Shown piece after piece: positions 1,588 to 63,531 of a stretch of 64,000 nt of DNA. The DNA is taken from NCBI GenBank assembly GCA_947252645.1, contig CAMXWF010000006.1:64697-128696 (forward strand). Direction: 5' to 3'. Origin of the DNA: an uncultured Bacteroidia bacterium. Its GTDB lineage: Bacteria > Bacteroidota > Bacteroidia > Bacteroidales > CAJPTX01. Made by a program: the position numbers and the translations under genes. Numbering within the stretch: the first letter of the stretch is position 1; each line of letters opens with the position of its first letter. The notes under the pieces were generated by a model. It had not been told where the DNA came from. It saw nothing but the letters and a program-made list of their open reading frames with translations, and did not search any database.

Positions 1588-2196
1588 ATGAGCTTTAGTA
1601 CGCACTGCAATCGACTGTTTTGGGATGTGGTGATAGACTACCACGTGAGCGACAACGTTGACACCCCCATCGAAAACCCCTACCCGCAGGGGACAATGGA
1701 TCACGACCTCTACCAGAAGGCGTGGGGCGACGCGGTGCAGTGGCACCTAGAAGACCTGATAAGAGACCCAAAGATAGCCCCAGAGGAGGCCTTGGCCCTC
1801 AAGCGGCGCATCGACCAGGCCAACCAGACCCGCACGGAGATGGTGGAGGCCCTCGACAGCTACTTCTACACGAAGTTCCACCAGGTGGAGGCCAGTCCCA
1901 ACGCCACGCTCAACACGGAGAGCCCAGCCTGGGCACTGGATCGACTGGCCATACTCACCCTCAAGATATACCACATGCAGGTAGAGGCCGTACGGCTGGA
2001 TGCCTCGGCTGAGCATAGGGCCCAGTGCCAAAGGAAGCTCAACGTGCTGCTCGAGCAGCGGGTCGACCTCTCCACGGCCATCGACCAGCTCCTCGAGGCC
2101 TACGCCGCAGGCACCAAGCGTATGAAGATGTACAAGCAGATGAAAATGTACAACGATCCTACCCTCAATCCCGTGCTCTACCGAGAGCAGCGGTAG
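1588..2196 (+). CDS. DUF4254 domain protein
   Basis: The 202-aa product contains YHV.DNVD, WGDAVQWHLEDLIRDP, SPAWALDRLAILTLKIYHM and a C-terminal KQMKMYND..LNPVL. This is the pattern I recall for DUF4254, which usually sits next to GT9 heptosyltransferases, as it does here. Confidence 0.75.
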   Translation: MSFSTHCNRLFWDVVIDYHVSDNVDTPIENPYPQGTMDHDLYQKAWGDAVQWHLEDLIRDPKIAPEEALALKRRIDQANQTRTEMVEALDSYFYTKFHQVEASPNATLNTESPAWALDRLAILTLKIYHMQVEAVRLDASAEHRAQCQRKLNVLLEQRVDLSTAIDQLLEAYAAGTKRMKMYKQMKMYNDPTLNPVLYREQR

Positions 2197-2217
2197 GGTC
2201 TCGCTAGGACATTCCCC

Positions 2218-3288
2218 ATGCCTACGCATCGCGCAGATGCCCCCAAGCCTCCACGTCGCGTGCTGGTGTTACGCCTGTCTGCGCTGGGCGATGTGGTGAT
2301 GATGCTGCCCCTGCTGCGCCAGGCCGCAGAGAGCTACCCAGAGGTGGAGTGGGTGGTGGTTTCCCAGGCGCACGTGGCCACGCTCTTCAGCGCGCTGGAG
2401 CGTGTGCGCTTCATCCCGGCCTACACCCATGGCGCCCATAAAGGCCTCCGTGGCCTATGGCAGCTGGCCAAAACCATCCATGCAGCAGGCCCCTACGAGG
2501 GGGTGGCCGACATGCACTCCGTGTTGCGGGCGTGGATCATTTGCCTCTTCCTACGTCTACTAGCACTACCCCACCACCTACAACTGGCGCATATCGACAA
2601 AGGGCGGCGCGGCAAGCGCGCGCTCTGCCGTGCGCACCATAAGCTCCTTCAGCCGCAGACTCACTCCATGATCCGCTATAGCAATGTGTTGGCGCAATTG
2701 GGATTCCTCGTCAACGTGCCCAAATGCTCCCATCTGATACCTCAACACCATGACCTGCCCCACATCCTAGAGCTGCTTGCGCCGTGCCGCGACTGGGTAG
2801 GCATAGCGCCCTTCGCTAAGCACGCAGGGAAGATGTATCCGCTGGCGTATAGCCTAGCGGTGGCCCAGCAGCTCTACGCGCGGGGCTACGGGCTTTGCCT
2901 CTTCGGGGCGGGCAACGAGGAGTCCCGCGTGCTGGAGGCATGGCATGAAAGCATGCCGCGAAGTATCAACGTGGCCGCGCTCCACAAAGGCCTTGACTGG
3001 GAAGTGGCCCTGATGCAGCAGCTGGAGGTGATGTTCACCATGGACTCAGCCAACCTGCATCTGGCCTCCTGGGCAGGCATCCCCGTGGTCTCCTTCTGGG
3101 GGGCTACGCACCCCTACGCGGGCTTCTACGGATGGGGACAAGCCCCGCAGCACTCCCTAGGGCGGCAAGACCTCGACTGTCGCCCCTGCTCTGTCTACGG
3201 TAATAGGCCCTGTAGACGGGGCGACTATGCCTGTAAGCAGATGCCCCCGGCACGCATTGTGGAGGTCATGCTCTCGGCCATAAAATAG
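2218..3288 (+). CDS. Glycosyltransferase family 9 (LPS heptosyltransferase-like)
   Basis: The 356-aa product has the N-terminal motif RVLVLRLSALGDVVMMLPLL typical of GT9 and a C-terminal Cys-rich tail. Confidence 0.75.
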   Translation: MPTHRADAPKPPRRVLVLRLSALGDVVMMLPLLRQAAESYPEVEWVVVSQAHVATLFSALERVRFIPAYTHGAHKGLRGLWQLAKTIHAAGPYEGVADMHSVLRAWIICLFLRLLALPHHLQLAHIDKGRRGKRALCRAHHKLLQPQTHSMIRYSNVLAQLGFLVNVPKCSHLIPQHHDLPHILELLAPCRDWVGIAPFAKHAGKMYPLAYSLAVAQQLYARGYGLCLFGAGNEESRVLEAWHESMPRSINVAALHKGLDWEVALMQQLEVMFTMDSANLHLASWAGIPVVSFWGATHPYAGFYGWGQAPQHSLGRQDLDCRPCSVYGNRPCRRGDYACKQMPPARIVEVMLSAIK

Positions 3289-13649: not shown

Positions 13650-13690
13650 ACAAAAACAAGGCGGCCTATCGCCCCTAGGGGCGATAGGCC
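13650..13690 (-). terminator. Intrinsic terminator of rpoD
   Basis: A perfect palindrome ggcctatcgcccc/ggggcgataggcc lies 22 nt after the rpoD stop. On the minus strand it is followed by TTGTTTTTG. Confidence 0.5.
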
Positions 13691-13711
13691 GTGCCACGGC
13701 TACCTCGGCCC

Positions 13712-43376: not shown

Positions 43377-43496
43377 TAACCGCTAGAATCCCAGAGTAGC
43401 TGCATCCTTAGGCTAAGCTACCAAGAATATCCCAGACCCTGCGCTGCTACCAAGCCGCCACCAGCCCACCGGCACCTAGCTGCACGGCATCCTATT

Positions 43497-45836
43497 CTAG
43501 AAATAGAAGCGTACCCCGCCCATGGGCATTATGGCATTCTCGTACACCGCGCGAGGCTTGCCGAACGCCTCATCGTAGAATACCTCGCGCACGTTCCTAC
43601 GGTTCGTTACGTTCGTCACCTCGACGTACGACTCCAAGGCCCCCCACGAAAAGTTCTGCTTCATCGTTACGTTCAAATCCAAGCGAAAGTAGAATGGCGT
43701 GCGCCCCTCGTATGCGCGTTCATACGAAATATCGAGCCGTCCGGTCGAATGCTTGTACGATGGGGTGTAACGCTTTCCCCCAAGGCACACGCAACGCGCA
43801 TTCACGCCTAGCAGCAGGCTCCGCAGCAGGCGCCATTCGTACCCTCCTACTGCCGTTACCCCAAAATCGCCAGCATATTTCCCCGGCCGCCACGCCCCAT
43901 CATGCCCACTGTAGTCGGCACGATACCACGTGCCAGTAAATGTAAAGTAATACCCCTTCCGAAACGGCCGCTCGAGGGTTAGCTCCACGCCGTAGTTCCT
44001 ACCACGCCCGCCATTGACAAAGCGCCGCCCCCAATCATCGTAGTAGGAATCGCCCATGTTCAAAAACGACTCCTGCGGCACGCTCACGGGCACCGGCACG
44101 CGGTAATGGCCTATGTAGTATATCTCTACCTTGGCCACCACCGACTCCACAAGGCGCTGCCCCGCTGAAAGCACCGCCTGCCAACTGCGCGCCGCGCCTA
44201 ACTCCCTATTCGGCATGTCGAGGCCTTCTCGATAGAAATACAGCTGCCTCGGCAAAAGCTGCGAATGCATCCCAGCGGCTATCCCTATAGAACTCCCCTG
44301 CGCGGCCCAACGCAACATCGCCCGTGGCTCCACTGCGTAGTCCCCATTGAGCGCGTAGCACTGCCCGTATACACCCAACCGCAGCGCCAAGGACTGCGCA
44401 AAATGATAATGCCACTGCGCAAATGCGCGCACCACCCCCGAATACATGGCCTCGGCTGGCATTCGAATCCTGCTATGCTCCCCTTTCCCCAACGCAGTGC
44501 CGTAGAGCGTCCCGCCAATCCCGCAACGCAGCGTGCTACGACTCGTGGGTAGCCAACTCAGCTCTGCGCGGCCATCGTACCGATCCTCCCGCTCGTAGCC
44601 TCGGTATACCAAGAATCCTGTATCTCTAGGATACCCAACCATTGTAACCTCCACATTGCGCGCAAAAAGCTGGTAGGAGAGCCTACCCTCAATGCGTACG
44701 CCCTCGGCCATCGCATACGTACTGCAAATACCAGTAAAAAACTGCCTGTTGCGGTTGTCTACCCACTGATTAAAAACCTGGGTCCCCGCCTGGTAGTCCG
44801 CTTCTCCTTGTTGCTCCTGCGCAGTTTCTATCCTACTGCGCCCCCAAAGGGCAAGCCACTCGAACGTGGCTCGCTTGTAGGGTAGGGTAATCTTGGCCAT
44901 GACGTCGTGGTAGCGCGGCACTCCATGCATATTGCGCACTACCCCGATGGCCTTCATCAACTCGAGGATAGAGTAGCGAGCACTGGCAATATACGTGGCT
45001 ACCCCTCGCCTTCCCAATGGCCCCTGCGCGCTCGCCTCTACGCCATTAAAACCCATGCCCGCAGTGAACTCATGGTGCGCTGCATTGCCCCGATGCAACT
45101 GCATATCGAATAGCCCCGAGGTCACATTGCCATACTCGGCAGGAAATGCCCCGGTGAAAAACGTGGAAGTGGCTAAAAAAGTGCTGTTGAGCATCGACAC
45201 CACCCCGCCCGTGCCGCCCAGCGAGCCGTAATGGTTCGGGTTGCTCAGCTCAAAACCATCCACCTGCCACTGCACGCCCAACGGACTATTGCCCCGTACC
45301 ACGATATCATTGCGCATATCGCCTACGCTTACCACACCAGCCGTATTGGTCACCATCCGCGCCGCATCGCCCCACGACCCTGCATAGCGGTTAACCTCTT
45401 CACTGCTCAGAGCCCGCGCGCTCACGCGCCCCCCCACGCCCCCACGGGCCAACACCGACACCTCGGCTATCGACACCTCCTCAGCATACAGCCCCACCAT
45501 GAGATACGCATCGCGCCCCGCAAGCAGCACCACCGAGCTCGCCTCCCAGGGCACATAATCCAGGCAAGTCACGCGTACCTCGGCGCGACCCATGGGCAAC
45601 CCCTCCAGCTCAAATCCGCCTGTCGTATCGCTATACGCCTTACGCAGCGAATCTCCCAATCGCACCTCCACGCTTGCCAACGAAAGCCCGCGGCGCGTCA
45701 TCACATCGTACACTAGACCGCGCAACGTCTGCCCATACCCCCCACTCGCCCATAGCTGGCCTATCACGACAATTAGAATCGCACACCGCCCCCAAGATAG
45801 CATCCCACAAAGTGTATATAAACGCTGCCACCGCAC
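43497..45836 (-). CDS. TonB-dependent receptor with an N-terminal carboxypeptidase-regulatory-like domain
   Basis: The start codon is GTG. The N-terminal domain reads LRGLVYDVMTRRGLSLASVEV. A plug and barrel follow, and the product ends GGVRFYF. Confidence 0.8.
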   Translation of the reverse strand: MRWQRLYTLCGMLSWGRCAILIVVIGQLWASGGYGQTLRGLVYDVMTRRGLSLASVEVRLGDSLRKAYSDTTGGFELEGLPMGRAEVRVTCLDYVPWEASSVVLLAGRDAYLMVGLYAEEVSIAEVSVLARGGVGGRVSARALSSEEVNRYAGSWGDAARMVTNTAGVVSVGDMRNDIVVRGNSPLGVQWQVDGFELSNPNHYGSLGGTGGVVSMLNSTFLATSTFFTGAFPAEYGNVTSGLFDMQLHRGNAAHHEFTAGMGFNGVEASAQGPLGRRGVATYIASARYSILELMKAIGVVRNMHGVPRYHDVMAKITLPYKRATFEWLALWGRSRIETAQEQQGEADYQAGTQVFNQWVDNRNRQFFTGICSTYAMAEGVRIEGRLSYQLFARNVEVTMVGYPRDTGFLVYRGYEREDRYDGRAELSWLPTSRSTLRCGIGGTLYGTALGKGEHSRIRMPAEAMYSGVVRAFAQWHYHFAQSLALRLGVYGQCYALNGDYAVEPRAMLRWAAQGSSIGIAAGMHSQLLPRQLYFYREGLDMPNRELGAARSWQAVLSAGQRLVESVVAKVEIYYIGHYRVPVPVSVPQESFLNMGDSYYDDWGRRFVNGGRGRNYGVELTLERPFRKGYYFTFTGTWYRADYSGHDGAWRPGKYAGDFGVTAVGGYEWRLLRSLLLGVNARCVCLGGKRYTPSYKHSTGRLDISYERAYEGRTPFYFRLDLNVTMKQNFSWGALESYVEVTNVTNRRNVREVFYDEAFGKPRAVYENAIMPMGGVRFYF

Positions 45837-45880
45837 TGCAAATCAAAGCAAACTTCGCAACTCTTGCAAGCTAGACAATA

Positions 45881-46006
45881 GCCTAACGGCAGCTACCTGT
45901 AGGAATTATACAGTGGAAATTATACAGTTAGCAGTATACTGCCTAATTCTAATCCTAGCTACTTACGGCTAACAACATGATAATAAATACTGACAACTGC
46001 CCACTG
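45881..46006 (+). repeat. Direct repeat copy 1 (126 bp): upstream region plus the first 10 codons of the alkylation-repair-like gene
   Basis: This segment aligns base-for-base, at a constant offset of 341 bp, with 46222-46347. Scattered substitutions are present. The repeat includes the ATG (45977 versus 46318). Confidence 0.85.
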
Positions 46007-46075
46007 AAAACAGACAACTGCCCACTGAAAACAGACAACTGCCCACTGAAAACAGACAACTGCCCACTGTTTTGA
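45977..46075 (+). CDS. Candidate 32-codon mini-ORF MIINTDNCPL(KTDNCPL)3F
   Basis: My own translation starts from the duplicated ATG and stops at TGA 46073-46075. It is too short for the ORF track. It inherits the same upstream sequence as the real gene at 46318. Expression is unproven. Confidence 0.3.
   Translation: MIINTDNCPLKTDNCPLKTDNCPLKTDNCPLF
45992..46069 (+). repeat. 21-bp tandem repeat, 3.7 copies (gacaactgcccactgaaaaca)
   Basis: Unit starts fall at 45992, 46013, 46034 and 46055. The copies are perfect. The minus-strand ORF track mirrors this as QWAVVCF x3. Confidence 0.9.
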
Positions 46076-46221
46076 CAGCACTGCCGCCAAAACAGCTGGA
46101 GGGCGTTGCAAGGTTTGCAGAACGAGCGGCAATTGCGTAAATTGCCAGTGGGCAGTAGACGGCAGGCAGTTGCTAGTGGGTTTCATACTGGTAGCTGGTA
46201 GCTGTTAACTGGCTTCAGCCT

Positions 46222-46347
46222 GCCTAACGGCAGCTACCTGTAGGCAGTATACAGTGGACAGTATACAGTTAGCAGTATACATCTTAATTCTAATTCTAGC
46301 TACTTACGTCTAACAACATGATACTAAATACTGACAACTGCCCACTG
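46222..46347 (+). repeat. Direct repeat copy 2 (126 bp), the copy attached to the intact gene
   Basis: See the entry for 45881-46006. Confidence 0.85.
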
Positions 46348-47055
46348 GCAACTACCCAGCGCGTGGCCTACGAAATCGCCCGCATGGCCAACCCTTCCTA
46401 CGCCCGTTTCCTCCACAAAGTCCTCCCCGGGCAAGAGGACCTCAAGATCCACGGCGTGAAAATCCCCCAACTGCGCGCCCTAGCTCGCCGCCTTGCCCAA
46501 GCCCAGCAGCGGCAGTGCTTTCTCGATGCCCTACCACACCCCAGCCTGGAAGAAAACCTGCTCCACGGACTCCTCATCAACGGCCTCCCAGACGGCCAGG
46601 CCACGCTCACAGAAATACAGCGATTTCTCCCCCACGTGAGCAACTGGATGGTCTGCGACACCACCTCCCCACAAGCCTTCCGCCAACACCCCGAAATCCT
46701 CCAGGGCATACTCCCCCACTGGCTAGCCCCAAGCGCGCAGCCCTACACCCAACGCTTCGCCTGCCTCTGCCTAATGCGCTACTTCCTAGGCCCCCTTTTC
46801 CAAACCGAGCACCTGCAGTGGGTGACTGCGCTCCCCACCTCGCACCGCTACGTACGCACGGGGGCCGCCTGGTACCTGGCCGAAGCCCTCATCGCGCAGC
46901 CTCGCCACGCATGGCCCTGCCTACTAAGCCCAGCAACCCCTACCCCACTGCGCCTCACCGCGCTACAAAAGGCCGTAGAAAGCAACCGCTCCTCCGCTGA
47001 CGACAAATCCTGCTTCCGAAAGCTCATCAAAGAAATCAGGCACGGCAACAGCTAG
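46318..47055 (+). CDS. DNA alkylation repair protein (AlkD-like HEAT-repeat family)
   Basis: The 245-aa product contains ARFLHKVLPGQEDLKIHGVKIPQLRALARRL and WMVCDT, which fit the PF08713-type pattern as I recall it. Confidence 0.75.
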   Translation: MILNTDNCPLATTQRVAYEIARMANPSYARFLHKVLPGQEDLKIHGVKIPQLRALARRLAQAQQRQCFLDALPHPSLEENLLHGLLINGLPDGQATLTEIQRFLPHVSNWMVCDTTSPQAFRQHPEILQGILPHWLAPSAQPYTQRFACLCLMRYFLGPLFQTEHLQWVTALPTSHRYVRTGAAWYLAEALIAQPRHAWPCLLSPATPTPLRLTALQKAVESNRSSADDKSCFRKLIKEIRHGNS

Positions 47056-48245: not shown

Positions 48246-49496
48246 CTAGCGTGAAAGGTGCATATAGGGCTCAATATTCCGAAGCGTCCGCTCGGTTGCA
48301 CCCTTGTTCGACTGCACGAACTCCCGGGCCGCTGCAGCCATACGTTCCTGGCGCTCCGCATCGTCCATCAGGGTCCTAAGCGCAGGCGCCAGCTCCGCGG
48401 GCTTGAGAACAGCCTGCCCTCCCCCGCAAGCCAATAGACCCAGCGCCTCATGGTAATCGCGATACCGCGGGCCAAACACCACAGGCAGCCCATACACCGC
48501 CGGCTCCAACGTATTGTGAATACCCGCACCAAAGCCACCACCCACGTAGGCCAAGCTCGCGTAGGCATAGATGGAAAAAAGTTGCCCAACGCTATCCACT
48601 ATGAGCACATCCACATCCTGGAGCTCCGCGGGCGAGCGCACCTCACTAGCCATCACAGCCGAGCAGGTGAGCCCGCGGCGAAGCGCCGCAAGCCTAGCCT
48701 GACCAAGCTCATGGGGCACCACCACGGCCCGCCAGCCCGAGGGAAGATCGTTGAGCAGCGGCAATAGCCCCTGCTCGTCAGATGGCCACGTACTACCAAA
48801 AACAACCACCTTATGCCCTTGGGCCAAGGACGACACCAACGGGTAGGGCTGGTTCTTCTCCCGGGCCGCTAGCACTCTGTCAAAACGACAATCTCCCGAC
48901 ACAAAGCATCGACTTACACCAAAATCGAGCAGCAGCTGCCGCGACTCCTCATCCTGCACAAAAAGCAGCGAAAAATAGTGCAACACCCGCTTGTAGAAGC
49001 CCCCATACCACTGAAAAAACGACTGCTGCCGACGAAAATAGGCCGATATGAGAAACGTTGGCACCTGACGCCGGGCCAGCTCCATGAGAAAATGCGGCCA
49101 GAACTCATACTTCACAAAGCAAACTATCTCCGGGCGCGCTATGGACAGAAAGTCCCGAACATTCCGCTTCGTATCCAAGGGAAGGTAGCCCACGTAGGTG
49201 GCCAGGGGATCATCGCGACGCACATTGTAGCCCGACGGGGAGTAAAAGGTCACCAGGAGGCGCCAATCGGGGTGCGCAGCCATAAACGCCTCCATGACCG
49301 ACCTCCCCTGCTCATACTCCCCCAAGGAGGCGCAGTGAAACCACACCACCGACCCCTGCCCGGCCGAAAACGCCCGACGCATACGATCCCGCCAACCCCT
49401 CCGCCCGCACAGCAGCGCCCGCGCCTTCGGATGCCACAGCGTCGCCAAATAGACCAAGCAATTGTAGACGTACAACCCCAACGTATAAAACAGCAT
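48246..49496 (-). CDS. waaA: 3-deoxy-D-manno-octulosonic acid (Kdo) transferase
   Basis: The 416-aa product contains VWFHCASLGEYEQGRSV and GGSF...GHN.LEPA-like (VGGGFGAGIHNTLEPA). Confidence 0.85.
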   Translation of the reverse strand: MLFYTLGLYVYNCLVYLATLWHPKARALLCGRRGWRDRMRRAFSAGQGSVVWFHCASLGEYEQGRSVMEAFMAAHPDWRLLVTFYSPSGYNVRRDDPLATYVGYLPLDTKRNVRDFLSIARPEIVCFVKYEFWPHFLMELARRQVPTFLISAYFRRQQSFFQWYGGFYKRVLHYFSLLFVQDEESRQLLLDFGVSRCFVSGDCRFDRVLAAREKNQPYPLVSSLAQGHKVVVFGSTWPSDEQGLLPLLNDLPSGWRAVVVPHELGQARLAALRRGLTCSAVMASEVRSPAELQDVDVLIVDSVGQLFSIYAYASLAYVGGGFGAGIHNTLEPAVYGLPVVFGPRYRDYHEALGLLACGGGQAVLKPAELAPALRTLMDDAERQERMAAAAREFVQSNKGATERTLRNIEPYMHLSR

Positions 49497-50702
49497 AGCT
49501 CACCTCCCACACGACCCCTCGGCCCCCAATGCCTCCTCCAAACCCCACAAAGTTAGAGAATAGTTACCTCTCCGCTACGCCGACCCCACTGACCCCTACG
49601 CCGCGGGAGGGCACCAAAGGAATTCAAGCGCAGCCCAGCGCCCAAACGTAGAATCGGATGCGCCAAGAGGGAGGCCCCGTATGGTCCTGCGCCCGAAAGT
49701 CAAACATCCCCTCCTGGCCATGCCCGTAGGCGTGCGGCAGCTCAGACTCGCCCAGGCGATCGATCAAAGAGAGCAGCACACCCACCACCGCCCCACAGAG
49801 ATGGCCCTCCCACGAAATAGCCGGATCCACTGCCAGCATGCCCCAAAGCAAGCTACCGTAGAGAAACACCACCAGCAGCGATATGGCCACCAGCACCCTA
49901 TCGCGATGCAGCAACCCCGAGAAAAACATGTAAAACGCCAGCGCATACACCAAGCCACTGGCCCCCACATGGTAGCTCGGCCGCGCAAAGCACCACACCC
50001 CCAGCCCCGTCAAGAGCCAGCCCAGCAAGTACACCCTATACCCCCTACGCGGATAGAAGAGGAAAAGCAACGTGCCTAGCACCAGCAAGGACAAGCTGTT
50101 GGTCAGGGCATGCTCCACATTCGGATGGAGCAACGGCATGAACAAAATGCCCAGCAGCCCTCGAAACGTCCGCGGGTAGACACCCAGCCAATAGAATTTA
50201 TCGCCCAGAAAAACGCCCACCAGCCACACACACCAGCCAAATCAGCCACACGTGGGCAGCCGGGAGGAGTAGATTGACCCGCCACCGCCGTAAGTCCTCC
50301 CACGCCTGCCGCGCCGAGGGCACTCCCTGCAAACTAGGCCTCTGGCGCATCGGCTGGTTGCACGTAGCGGATCTCCTGCACCTTCAGCTGCGGATTGTGG
50401 ATCTCCACGATGTCCTCCGAGATGTTGACCAGGCTATCCCCCACCCGCTCACACTGCGAGAGAATATCCACCTCCACCCTATCGCTGATCTCCTCATACT
50501 TCTCCACCCGCGCATAGATGCGGTGAAGCTCCTTCTCGTTCTGGGCATCCATCATGCTCCTGACGAAGTTGAACATGCGGTAGGTGCGCCGGGCATAGAC
50601 CAAGACCTCCTTCTTGGCCTGCAGCAGGGAGAGCTCGCCAGTCTGCAGTAGACCAATGCCTATGGAGTGCAGACGCTCATCCTCATCACCCTTCTCCCGC
50701 AC
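49411..50702 (-). repeat. Segmental duplication, copy A (1292 bp)
   Basis: This segment is colinear with 50703-52423. The offset is 1292 at the left end, 1331 across the rhomboid start and transporter stop, and 1721 at the right end. The indels sum exactly: +390 +54 -15. Confidence 0.9.
49624..50229 (-). CDS. Rhomboid-family intramembrane serine protease (copy A, catalytic residues intact)
   Basis: The start codon is GTG, with a stop 4 codons upstream in frame. The motifs are HPNVEHALTNS, the catalytic HVGASGLVYAL and the catalytic His in EGHLCGAVVG. Confidence 0.75.
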   Translation of the reverse strand: MWLVGVFLGDKFYWLGVYPRTFRGLLGILFMPLLHPNVEHALTNSLSLLVLGTLLFLFYPRRGYRVYLLGWLLTGLGVWCFARPSYHVGASGLVYALAFYMFFSGLLHRDRVLVAISLLVVFLYGSLLWGMLAVDPAISWEGHLCGAVVGVLLSLIDRLGESELPHAYGHGQEGMFDFRAQDHTGPPSWRIRFYVWALGCA

Positions 50703-50788
50703 AGCAGCGCCCGCGCCTTCGGATGCCACAGCGTCGCCAAATAGACCAAGCAATTGTAGACGCACAACCCCAACGTATAAAACAGCAT
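50334..50788 (-). pseudogene. Chimeric remnant: waaA codons 1-28 (50788-50703) fused out of frame to a deleted 3' part of the Na/Pi-cotransporter gene (50702-50334)
   Basis: Segment 50703-50788 is nearly identical to 49411-49496. Segment 50334-50702 matches 51665-51801 plus 52192-52423. In the waaA frame a TAG follows 15 codons after the junction. Confidence 0.8.
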
Positions 50789-51005
50789 AGCTCACCTCCC
50801 ACACGCCCCCTCGGCCTCCAATGCCTCCTTCAAACCCCACAAAGTTAGAGAATAGTTACCTCTCCGCTACGCCGCCCCCAGTGGCCCCTACGCCGCGGGA
50901 GGGCACCAAAGGAAGTCAAGCGCAGCCCAGCACCCCAATGTAGAATCGGATGCGCCAAGAGGAAGGCCCCGTATGGTCCTGCGCCCGAAAGGCAAACATC
51001 CCCTC

Positions 51006-51560
51006 CTAACCATGCCCGTAGGCGTGCGGCGGCTCGGACTCGCCCAGGCGATCGATCGAGGAGAGCAGCACACCCACCACCGCCCCACAGAGATGGCCCT
51101 CCCACGAAATCAGCATGTCCCAGACCAAGCTACCGTAGAGAAACACCACCAGCAGCGATTTGGCCACCAGCAGCGATATGGCCACCAGCAGCGATATGGC
51201 CACCAGCAGCGATATGGCCGCCAGCACCCCATCGCGATGCAGCAACCCCGAGAAAAACATGTGGAACTCCAGCGCATACACCAAGCCTCCGGCCCCCACA
51301 TGGTAGCCCGGCTGCGCGAAGCACCACACCCCCAACCCCGTCAAGAGCCAGCCCAGCAAGTACACCCTATACCCCCTACGCGGATAGAAGAGGAAAAGCA
51401 ACGTGCCTAGCACCAGCAAGGACAAGCTGTTGGTCAGGGCATGCTCCACATTCGGATGGAGCAACGGCATGAACAAAATGCCCAGCAGCCCTCGAAACGT
51501 CCGCGGGTAGACACCCAGCCAATAGAATTTATCGCCCAGAAAAACGCCCACCAGCCACAC
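51006..51560 (-). CDS. Rhomboid paralog (copy B), predicted catalytically inactive or decaying
   Basis: The first 82 aa are identical to copy A. After that it differs in four ways: GASG becomes GAGG, 18 aa are inserted (AISLLV x3), 5 aa (AVDPA) are deleted, and CAG becomes TAG, which truncates the tail. Confidence 0.55.
   Translation of the reverse strand: MWLVGVFLGDKFYWLGVYPRTFRGLLGILFMPLLHPNVEHALTNSLSLLVLGTLLFLFYPRRGYRVYLLGWLLTGLGVWCFAQPGYHVGAGGLVYALEFHMFFSGLLHRDGVLAAISLLVAISLLVAISLLVAKSLLVVFLYGSLVWDMLISWEGHLCGAVVGVLLSSIDRLGESEPPHAYGHG
51146..51217 (-). repeat. 18-bp tandem repeat x4 (ccaccagcagcgatatgg) inside rhomboid copy B
   Basis: The units are 51146-51163, 51164-51181, 51182-51199 and 51200-51217. 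Copy A has a single unit. Confidence 0.9.
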
Positions 51561-51664
51561 ACACCAGCCAAATCAGCCACACGTGGGCAGCCGGGAGGAG
51601 TAGATTGACCCGCCACCGCCGTAAGTCCTCCCACGCCTGCCGCGCCGAGGGCACTCCCTGCAAA

Positions 51665-53413
51665 CTAGGCCTCTGGCGCATCGGCTGGTTGCACGTAGCG
51701 GATCTCCTGCACCTTCAGCTGCGGATTGTGGATCTCCACGATGTCCTCCGAGATATTGATTAGGCTATCCCCCACCCGCTCACACTGCGAGAGAATATCC
51801 AGGTAAAACAACCCAGCCTGGCAACTGTAGCGCCCCTGCTCCATGTTGTCGACATGCGCAGACTTCATGTCGTTGCGATACCGGTTGATGGCATCCTCAC
51901 AGGCATAGGCCTCCGCCAGATCCACCCGCTCATCAGCGCCCCCCAGATTGCGCAGCATAGCCGCAAAGGCATCGTCTACGTAGGTAAACATCTGCTGTAT
52001 ACGGCTCACGATGTACTCGTTGAACCACACCCCATCGCGGTGCTTATTCATAAACAGCCGGGCGATGTTGTGGCAGTAATCGGCCACGTTCTCTATATCA
52101 TCTATCTCCTTGAGTAGGCCCCGCATCGTCGCGCTACCCTCCTCGCTCAACTCCGACGAGTGGATATTACCCAAATACGTGGATATCTCCACCTCCACCC
52201 TATCGCTGATCTCCTCATACTTCTCCACCCGCGCATAGATGCGGTGAAGCTCCTTCTCGTTCTGGGCATCCATCATGCTCCTGACGAAGTTGAACATGCG
52301 GTAGGTGCGCCGGGCATAGACCAAGACCTCCTTCTTGGCCTGCAGCAGGGAGAGCTCGCCAGTCTGCAGTAGGCCAATGCCTATGGAGCGCAGACGCTCA
52401 TCCTCATCGCCCTTCTCCCGCACGGGCAGCAACCGCGTCACAAGCTTCACCATCTGGGGCGTAAACCACACCTGCACCAGCGTGTTTGACACGTTGAAAC
52501 ACGTATGGAACAGCGAGAGCGCAAAGGGCGTGGCCCCCACAGGGTCGGCCTGCAGATCGAAGCCAGCCACCCCCACCAGCCAGGACACCCCCGCCAGGAA
52601 CGGCCTGAAAAGTATGAGTACCCAGCAAACGCCAAAAACATTGAACAGCATATGGAACAGCGCAGCCCGCTTGGCAGCCACATTGCCCACCGAGGCCGCC
52701 AGAATGGCCGTTATCGTCGTGCCGATGTTCTCCCCCAAAATCATGGCCGCCGCCATGGGAAAGTCGATCCAGCCGTTCGAACACATGATGAGCGTCAGGG
52801 CCACCGTGGCCGATGAAGACTGCACTATGAAGGTCATCAGCGTACCCACACCCAAGAAAATAAGCACCGAGAAAAAACCATAGGAGGTGAAGCCCCGAAG
52901 CGCCTCGAGTATCTGGGGATACTCCTGCAAATCGGGCATATTGGCCTTGAGGTACGCCAGGCCCAGGAAGATGAGCGAGAAGCCCAAGATGAGCTCGCCG
53001 CGCGAACGGCGCTTGGGGCGCTTGCTGAAGAGCAACGGTACCACTACGCCGATCATGGGCAAGGTGATGAGGGCTATATCCATCTTGAAGCCAAACAGGG
53101 CGATAATCCACGCCGTGGCCGTCGTGCCGATGTTGGCCCCCATAATCACCCCCACCGCCTGGACCAGGGTGAGCAAGCCCGCGTTGACGAAGCTCACCAC
53201 CATGACCGTGGTGGCCGAGGACGACTGGATCACCGCCGTGACGGCCAAACCCGTCAAAATGCGCTTGAACCGATTGCTCGTCATCGCGGCCAGCAAATCC
53301 CGCATCTTGTCGCCTGCCACCTTCTGGAGCGACTCGCTCATGAGCTTCATCCCGTAGAGAAAAACCCCCAGCGAGCCTACCAGCGTCAACACCTCAAGCA
53401 GTACCTCGAGCAT
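51665..53413 (-). CDS. Na+/phosphate cotransporter family protein with a C-terminal PhoU-like repeat domain
   Basis: The 582-aa product has an N-terminal half with duplicated GANIGTT / GENIGTT motifs. The C-terminal half has two PhoU-like helical repeats. Confidence 0.85.
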   Translation of the reverse strand: MLEVLLEVLTLVGSLGVFLYGMKLMSESLQKVAGDKMRDLLAAMTSNRFKRILTGLAVTAVIQSSSATTVMVVSFVNAGLLTLVQAVGVIMGANIGTTATAWIIALFGFKMDIALITLPMIGVVVPLLFSKRPKRRSRGELILGFSLIFLGLAYLKANMPDLQEYPQILEALRGFTSYGFFSVLIFLGVGTLMTFIVQSSSATVALTLIMCSNGWIDFPMAAAMILGENIGTTITAILAASVGNVAAKRAALFHMLFNVFGVCWVLILFRPFLAGVSWLVGVAGFDLQADPVGATPFALSLFHTCFNVSNTLVQVWFTPQMVKLVTRLLPVREKGDEDERLRSIGIGLLQTGELSLLQAKKEVLVYARRTYRMFNFVRSMMDAQNEKELHRIYARVEKYEEISDRVEVEISTYLGNIHSSELSEEGSATMRGLLKEIDDIENVADYCHNIARLFMNKHRDGVWFNEYIVSRIQQMFTYVDDAFAAMLRNLGGADERVDLAEAYACEDAINRYRNDMKSAHVDNMEQGRYSCQAGLFYLDILSQCERVGDSLINISEDIVEIHNPQLKVQEIRYVQPADAPEA

Positions 53414-63448: not shown

Positions 63449-63531
63449 TAGTAGCATTTGGCGCAATTCCATTGTAGCGTTTGGCCGACTTTCAATGTAG
63501 CATTCGGCGCAGTTCCATTGTAGCGTTTGGC
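63449..63531. repeat. Four 23-bp-phased repeats (core TGTAGCRTTYGGC) organised as a 46-bp unit x2
   Basis: gtagcatttggcgcaattccattgtagcgtttggc (63450-63484) matches gtagcattcggcgcagttccattgtagcgtttggc (63496-63530). Confidence 0.85.

Follow-up and report, generated by a model that had tools for sequence, protein, structure and literature searches.

Organization of the duplicated waaA locus

The 64-kb window analysed here, which is the whole 64,000-nucleotide stretch of contig CAMXWF010000006.1 from an uncultured Bacteroidia bacterium and whose own positions are used throughout, contains a tandem duplication in which the 5′ end of waaA, a rhomboid gene and the 3′ end of a Na/Pi-cotransporter gene are present twice. 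The two copies, A and B, were defined by repeat finding, self-BLAST and global alignment. They lie next to each other as colinear direct repeats joined at one novel junction (50702/50703), and self-BLAST and repeat finding identified them as the sole long repeat in the window. All genes of the locus lie on the minus strand, in the order transporter, rhomboid B, waaA stub, junction, transporter remnant, rhomboid A, waaA. The features, with the evidence for each in brackets, are as follows.

48246..49496, minus strand: waaA, intact Kdo transferase, 416 aa (open reading frame, ORF; Pfam PF04413, E=4e-43)
49411..50702, no strand: copy A, 1292 bp (repeat finding, self-BLAST, global alignment)
49624..50229, minus strand: rhomboid A, 201-aa ORF with a GTG start, as assembled (Pfam PF01694, E=3.9e-20)
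50005..50423, no strand: 419-bp block identical to positions 51336-51754 of copy B (alignment, marker comparison)
50334..50702, minus strand: Na/Pi-transporter 3′ remnant, residues ~331-409 and 540-582 (PhoU-like tail)
50696..50702, no strand: junction microhomology CCCGCAC, 7 bp (alignment; 40-mer match in other loci)
50703..50788, minus strand: waaA stub, ATG at 50788, 28 codons plus 2 nucleotides
50703..52423, no strand: copy B, 1721 bp (repeat finding, self-BLAST, global alignment)
51006..51560, minus strand: rhomboid B, pseudogene, 184-aa ORF
51146..51226, no strand: 18-bp tandem repeat in rhomboid B, 4.5 copies in the window
51665..53413, minus strand: intact Na/Pi cotransporter with PhoU-like tail, 582 aa (ORF, Pfam)
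51798..52187, no strand: 390-bp segment present in B and deleted from A (global alignment)

The initial annotation had described 49411-50702 and 50703-52423 as colinear tandem copies of this gene content, and both the three alignment approaches and the Pfam assignments (PF04413 in waaA, PF01694 twice, Na_Pi_cotrans plus PhoU) bear this out. It had also stated that the outer halves alone belong to intact genes. The waaA and transporter ORFs are indeed intact, with waaA codons 1-28 and the waaA upstream region falling within copy A and transporter residues 331-582 within copy B. The identical 66-aa shadow ORFs that it had noted in the two copies are present in the ORF list. An Rfam search of the whole window returned two tRNAs, both elsewhere, and no RNA element in the duplicated region.

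Copies A and B differ in length by 429 bp, which is accounted for by a 390-bp in-frame deletion from A (B 51798-52187, absent at the joint 50466/50467 and making up most of the gap), by 54 bp extra in B that correspond to three additional units of the 18-bp repeat, and by a 15-bp indel whose extra bases lie in A at 49819-49833. Substitutions between the copies are distributed very unevenly: there are 33 over 49411-50004, none over the 419 bp of 50005-50423 and six over 50424-50702. The recount agrees with the mosaic described initially, namely a block without differences, about six substitutions across the rest of the right-hand part, and a left ~600 bp with dozens of substitutions plus two indels (here 15 bp and 54 bp).

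At the junction, the heptamer CCCGCAC has two parental copies, one at 49404-49410, around codon 28 of waaA, and the other at 52417-52423, at codon 330 of the Na/Pi transporter. A 168-aa ORF spans this junction (50334-50840). It matches no Pfam family, and at its N-terminus the waaA leader is read in an alternate frame. A functional fusion protein encoded by this ORF was considered and rejected. The reading frame of the true waaA stub does not match that of the transporter remnant and meets a stop after 42 codons, so that translation across the junction should yield no fusion protein.

A working rhomboid gene and a decayed paralog

Rhomboid proteases of family PF01694 share a GlpG-type core of six transmembrane (TM) segments. 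In the other strains, copy A aligns with Bacteroidota orthologs and has the features of this family: TM1, the H..N motif of TM2, the serine of GxSG and the histidine of TM6. In the window, rhomboid A combines the PF01694 domain with the catalytic serine (codon 49957-49959, GASG) and histidine (codon 49801-49803, WEGH), but as assembled it lacks an in-frame TM1, whereas the protein is 240-245 aa long in all other duplication-bearing strains.

Rhomboid B departs from the family in every copy compared. A 4-bp GTGT frameshift, of the slippage type, puts TM1, whose 'RRWRV..IPA..' sequence is conserved at the N-terminus of orthologs, out of frame in all B copies. The catalytic GASG has become GAGG by a Ser-to-Gly change (window codon 51288-51290), five codons are deleted, and a premature stop truncates the C-terminus. 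With the catalytic serine gone and the six-TM core no longer in one frame, rhomboid B cannot be counted among the rhomboid proteases, and in one strain (P0003) the catalytic histidine is missing as well. The ratio of non-synonymous to synonymous divergence (dN/dS) was 0.63-0.80 between the A and B rhomboids and 0.14 between A and its ortholog. When changes in the rhomboid core were polarised with the outgroup L015, described below, 17 were derived in B and five in A, although the polarisation is noisy because that outgroup is 20% diverged. A few derived changes, with the same outgroup as reference, are also found in the transporter remnant of copy A. Taken together, these data indicate that the copy B rhomboid is a pseudogene and that the copy A rhomboid is the working gene in most strains.

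Every A copy, like the outgroup, has one 18-bp unit, whereas the number of units in copy B varies by strain: one in L016 and L020, two in L001-L003, three in L004 and up to four overall. The array is a copy-number-variable repeat that arose inside the pseudogene. A diversity-generating or targeted-mutation origin of the divergent left part was rejected on inspection, which found all substitution types mixed.

The duplication is shared by strains of one uncultured species

Synteny was drawn from metagenome contigs, the loci of which are labelled L001 and so on. The exact waaA protein occurs on ten contigs, and the two-copy architecture was found at ~99% identity in loci from seven other samples. 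The 40-mer spanning the junction is present exactly in L001-L005, L016, L020 and L021, and absent from L015 and L019; the 40-mer spanning the 390-bp deletion joint is likewise exact in seven other samples. Loci L001-L004, L016/L021 and L020 are MEGAHIT k141 contigs from six samples, in which each 141-mer must be present in the reads, and L005 is a '-scaffold' contig. Because a graph with k=141 cannot invent a join through 7 bp of homology, these contigs argue that the duplication is a genuine genomic feature and not an assembly error, as the initial annotation had supposed when it judged a trivial assembly error less expected.

The outgroup locus L015 (~80% nucleotide identity) is single-copy, with the order kbl-NaPi(582)-rhomboid(232)-waaA(416)-holB and no self-repeat. 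Since L015 has one copy and all seven samples share the two-copy architecture, the duplication appears to have arisen after the split from L015 and before the sampled strains diverged. Synonymous divergence (dS) between the copies is 0.06-0.08, compared with 0.8-1.4 to the outgroup, and strains differ from one another by ~1% or less. The suggestion that the duplication is old therefore holds relative to the strains, and the comparison of synteny in relatives that had been proposed for dating it yields one single-copy outgroup and seven two-copy samples of the same species.

Searches outside this set returned little. Scanning 185,579 GTDB species genomes for waaA gave best relatives with at most 41% identity and no close representative, and a scan of JGI metagenomes for the junction 40-mer gave no match. 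RecG encoded in the window is at most 52% identical to named proteins (51-52% to Tannerella and to Bacteroidaceae metagenome-assembled genomes). With a best waaA match of 41% and RecG at no more than 52%, the host is a poorly sampled, Bacteroidia-like lineage of ~60% G+C.

Origin of the 419-bp identical block

The most informative comparison for the identity blocks is with L004, a MEGAHIT k141 contig from another sample. The window and L004 are identical along 7.8 kb, and another 13.5 kb contains no differences besides 17 substitutions and an indel in copy A, the two positions 52247/52250, one 18-bp unit and a 21-bp array, so that ordinary single-nucleotide polymorphisms amount to zero in 21 kb. 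The 17 sites and the indel, a 4-bp GTGT insertion at ~50225-50233, all lie within 50060-50364 (305 bp), and at each of them copy A of the window carries the B-type allele. It is B-type at every marker from 50364/50322 to 50060, where the seven other A copies are A-type.

The limits of these blocks follow the runs of sequence that A and B share. In L004, shared runs of at least 55 bp measure 67, 55, 75 and 59 bp, then 59 and 122 bp. In the window, the runs of 55, 75 and 59 bp are fused into the 419-bp block and those of 59 and 122 bp into a 185-bp block, and nothing else is changed. The homogenised stretches are therefore exactly the short bulges between shared runs of at least 55 bp (the value of k being deduced), and the long bulge (~590 bp) and the bulge with unequal arms (the 390-bp deletion) are not homogenised. 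Moreover, L005, whose '-scaffold_N' naming is that of the window, has as its last 55 bases a sequence common to A and B, with base 56 copy-specific. This contig end appears to be the mark of a k=55 de Bruijn graph, and the pipeline behind the window appears to have used the same k.

SPAdes-type assemblers collapse bulges by merging short parallel paths between shared k-mers into one consensus, which is then traversed twice, and bulge removal combined with such repeat traversal would yield homogenised blocks of this kind. The window shares with that process perfect identity bounded by shared runs. In contrast, the junction, the 390-bp deletion and the long divergent part are independently corroborated and lie beyond what bulge collapse can make. 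We consider it probable that a de Bruijn assembler running at k=55 merged the short A/B bulges and so generated the 419-bp and 185-bp blocks as a consensus. If so, the identity blocks would not be a property of the strain, and rhomboid A would really be intact, as in L004.

Several points weigh against this explanation. The assembler of the window was deduced from contig naming and one contig end, and both the duplication and the 419-bp block were judged from assembled contigs alone. The SPIRE paper, with sample naming like that of the window, reports MEGAHIT. Use of MEGAHIT would be at odds with the window, because that assembler could not place an exact repeat of 419 bp within one contig. 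The coincidence with k=55 is also weakened by the tendency of real conversion tracts to stop within the longest stretches of identity. Finally, the 21-bp array measures 78 bp in the window and 36 bp in L004, a difference that a k=55 graph would not inflate; the two are therefore truly distinct strains, in which fast recombinational change is plausible.

The alternative is that the block records a real and very recent B-to-A gene conversion, with 52247/52250 as a short A-to-B tract. Pseudogene sequence, including the GTGT frameshift, would then have been copied into rhomboid A, knocking out the working gene. A run of 20 consecutive diagnostic markers plus the indel in copy A of the window matches the resident B haplotype (the type shared by the B copies of the window and L004) while all seven other A copies are A-type in the block, and a cluster of B-type alleles on a background clonal with L004 is a classic conversion signature. 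Real inter-copy tracts are documented by k141 contigs (L016_B, L020_B and L023), further 201-aa rhomboid forms exist (P0127, P0129), and the tandem arrays differ between the window and L004, so that fast non-point changes have occurred. On the other hand, the homogenised stretches are exactly and solely those that k=55 would collapse, in a pipeline that shows a k=55 contig end; conversion needs two events of opposite direction on a background with zero point mutations; and the haplotype of the window, which is identical to ERZ28569623 scaffold_57, is found on two contigs in the collection, one being the window's own and the other not demonstrably independent. We regard conversion as a serious but tentative explanation. 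It is no more likely than a bulge-collapse consensus to be the source of the block. Of the partial re-homogenisation by gene conversion that the initial annotation proposed, exchange between the copies stands at the level of the population (L016_B, L020_B), but the 419-bp block on which it was read is not secure, in view of the 17 substitutions and 4-bp indel seen in L004 and of the k=55 bulges.

Positions 52247/52250 are two synonymous substitutions 3 bp apart and the only transporter differences from L004; they match the allele of the copy A remnant. Either a micro-conversion or the assembler effect described above would account for them.

Conversion between paralogs is known in bacteria from tufA/tufB, and pseudogene-templated conversion from pilS to pilE in Neisseria and from CYP21A1P to CYP21A2 in humans. 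The window resembles all three in its patchy, paralog-matching tracts on an otherwise diverged pair and, as assembled, it would resemble the last two in having a defective copy overwrite a working one. It differs from these systems in that a programmed or selected mechanism has no support here and the window tract is putative.

Exchange between the copies and probable loss in the population

Independently of the window, recombination between A and B could be followed by painting 59 A/B diagnostic markers across all loci. In L016_B and L020_B, k141 contigs from two samples, an A-type tract (alignment columns 1460-1520) lies between flanking B markers that are 125 bp apart. The tracts are ~60 bp long, run in the A-to-B direction and affect the C-terminal end of rhomboid B (window equivalent ~50932-50992); L020_B carries a second tract. 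Because the B-A-B pattern fits within one k-mer length (125 bp, k141), the recombinant molecules are real, which shows that inter-copy exchange occurs in the population. The mosaics L022 and L024, from low-coverage SPAdes assemblies, were not used for conversion, as they end on shared 56-67-bp runs and may be collapsed graph edges.

Two same-species loci bear on loss of the duplication. L019, a 28-kb Logan contig, is single-copy and lacks the junction. Its markers change type once and cleanly at the 18-bp repeat, 39 of B type being followed by 20 of A type, and its rhomboid has the B-specific defects. L019 as the ancestral single-copy state was rejected, since those defects are derived in copy B, and the contig is most simply read as a deletion derivative. 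L023, a k141 contig, is a hybrid with B-type sequence on the left and A-type on the right, a full-length transporter on the left and full waaA on the right.

Origin and fate of the duplication

Very probably, the locus as a whole represents a real, lineage-specific tandem duplication followed by decay of its redundant parts. The identity blocks of the window are, with less confidence, probably assembler-made. Judging from the junction, illegitimate recombination at CCCGCAC between waaA codon ~28 and Na/Pi-transporter codon 330 would have created the duplication, with an original unit of ~1.68 kb. The outer halves retain one intact transporter and one intact waaA. The inner, redundant material has decayed, presumably neutrally. 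In copy A the transporter remnant has lost 390 bp. The upstream rhomboid (B) has acquired a frameshift, a glycine in place of the catalytic serine, the loss of five codons and an early stop, and an 18-bp unit within it was duplicated and grew into the variable array. The copies still recombine in the population, presumably by RecA-type exchange, giving short conversion tracts and probably deletions to a single hybrid copy.

This is an ordinary event of a well-known kind. Spontaneous tandem duplications with short-homology join points have reportedly been described in Salmonella and E. coli by Roth, Andersson and others. The present duplication resembles them in its head-to-tail copies, its microhomology junction, the one intact copy left of each truncated flanking gene, and a structure prone to RecA-dependent loss that leaves a hybrid. 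The laboratory duplications, however, are usually large, unstable and transient, whereas this one measures 1.7 kb, is found in all but two of the same-species contigs examined, and shows 5-7% divergence with copy-specific decay. Its scientific weight is modest: within one uncultured species, the strains preserve a clean natural case of small tandem duplication, with a record of the birth junction, asymmetric decay, emergence of a repeat array, inter-copy exchange and probable reversion by deletion. It also calls for caution, as mosaic paralog identity in a short-read metagenome contig can be made by the assembler, an effect that assemblies with larger k expose.

Maintenance by selection could take three forms, in which the structure is trapped by complementary defects, translation of rhomboid A depends on an open remnant ORF, or copy B serves as an off-switch donor. 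The persistence of the pair to dS ~0.06-0.08 despite 1.3 kb of direct homology would fit selection, and so would the 156-aa open frame that all strains keep through the in-frame 390-bp deletion and the overlap, seen in copy A as well as the outgroup, between the rhomboid start and the stop of the preceding ORF. The remnant diverges by 2.5%, against 4.7-6.9% in the rhomboid region, and two of its six differences are non-synonymous, but these counts are too small for significance. Copy B, moreover, shows plain pseudogene decay, and L019 suggests that hybrids reduced to one copy, with a dead rhomboid, exist. We therefore consider selection unlikely. In its more specific form, most homologous deletions would leave a dead rhomboid or a truncated transporter, and the silent copy B would recurrently null rhomboid A, as perhaps in the window, L019 and L023. 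This is an improbable proposal as well which, if true, would mean that a natural population is polymorphic for an intramembrane protease turned on or off from a pseudogene template.

That the whole duplication is an assembly artefact, whether two strain haplotypes placed in series or a mis-join, is extremely improbable: L019 (Logan, k=31) and the short k141 contig L023 do appear single-copy, but the junction through 7 bp of homology is matched exactly over 40 bp in the k141 contigs of six samples and in one '-scaffold' contig, fixed copy-specific defects are common to all strains, and the derived B-specific defects of the L019 rhomboid point to a secondary deletion and not to the ancestral state.

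Neighbouring features

A 2.9-kb segment at 43449-46354, which carries a CarboxypepD_reg-domain gene (ORF 43497-45836, 779 aa), is present in the window and L004 and absent from L001-L003, L005, L016 and L019, where recG directly follows the DNA-alkylation-repair gene. Within it, the first codons of the DNA-alkylation-repair gene (46318-47055) and the sequence upstream of them are present twice, as a 126-bp direct repeat (45881-46006 and 46222-46347; 92% identity, 341 bp apart) that L004 also has. It constitutes a second duplication of the 'promoter plus 5′ end' type, 3 kb from that of waaA. Just past the duplicated start codon, at 45992-46069, lies the perfect 21-bp tandem array (GACAACTGCCCACTGAAAACA), with 3.7 copies in the window and 1.7 in the otherwise identical L004; a 75-aa ORF of the other strand owes its 'QWAVVCF' repeat to this array.

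Elsewhere in the window there is a 30-bp perfect palindrome at 13662-13691, and two 35-bp direct repeats with 94% identity lie 46 bp apart at 63451-63531. In the outgroup L015, a methyl-accepting chemotaxis gene (MCPsignal, L015 positions 1655-3199) is found upstream of kbl, where the window species has thiamine-phosphate synthase (TMP-TENI) and YceG genes; synteny therefore breaks immediately upstream of kbl.

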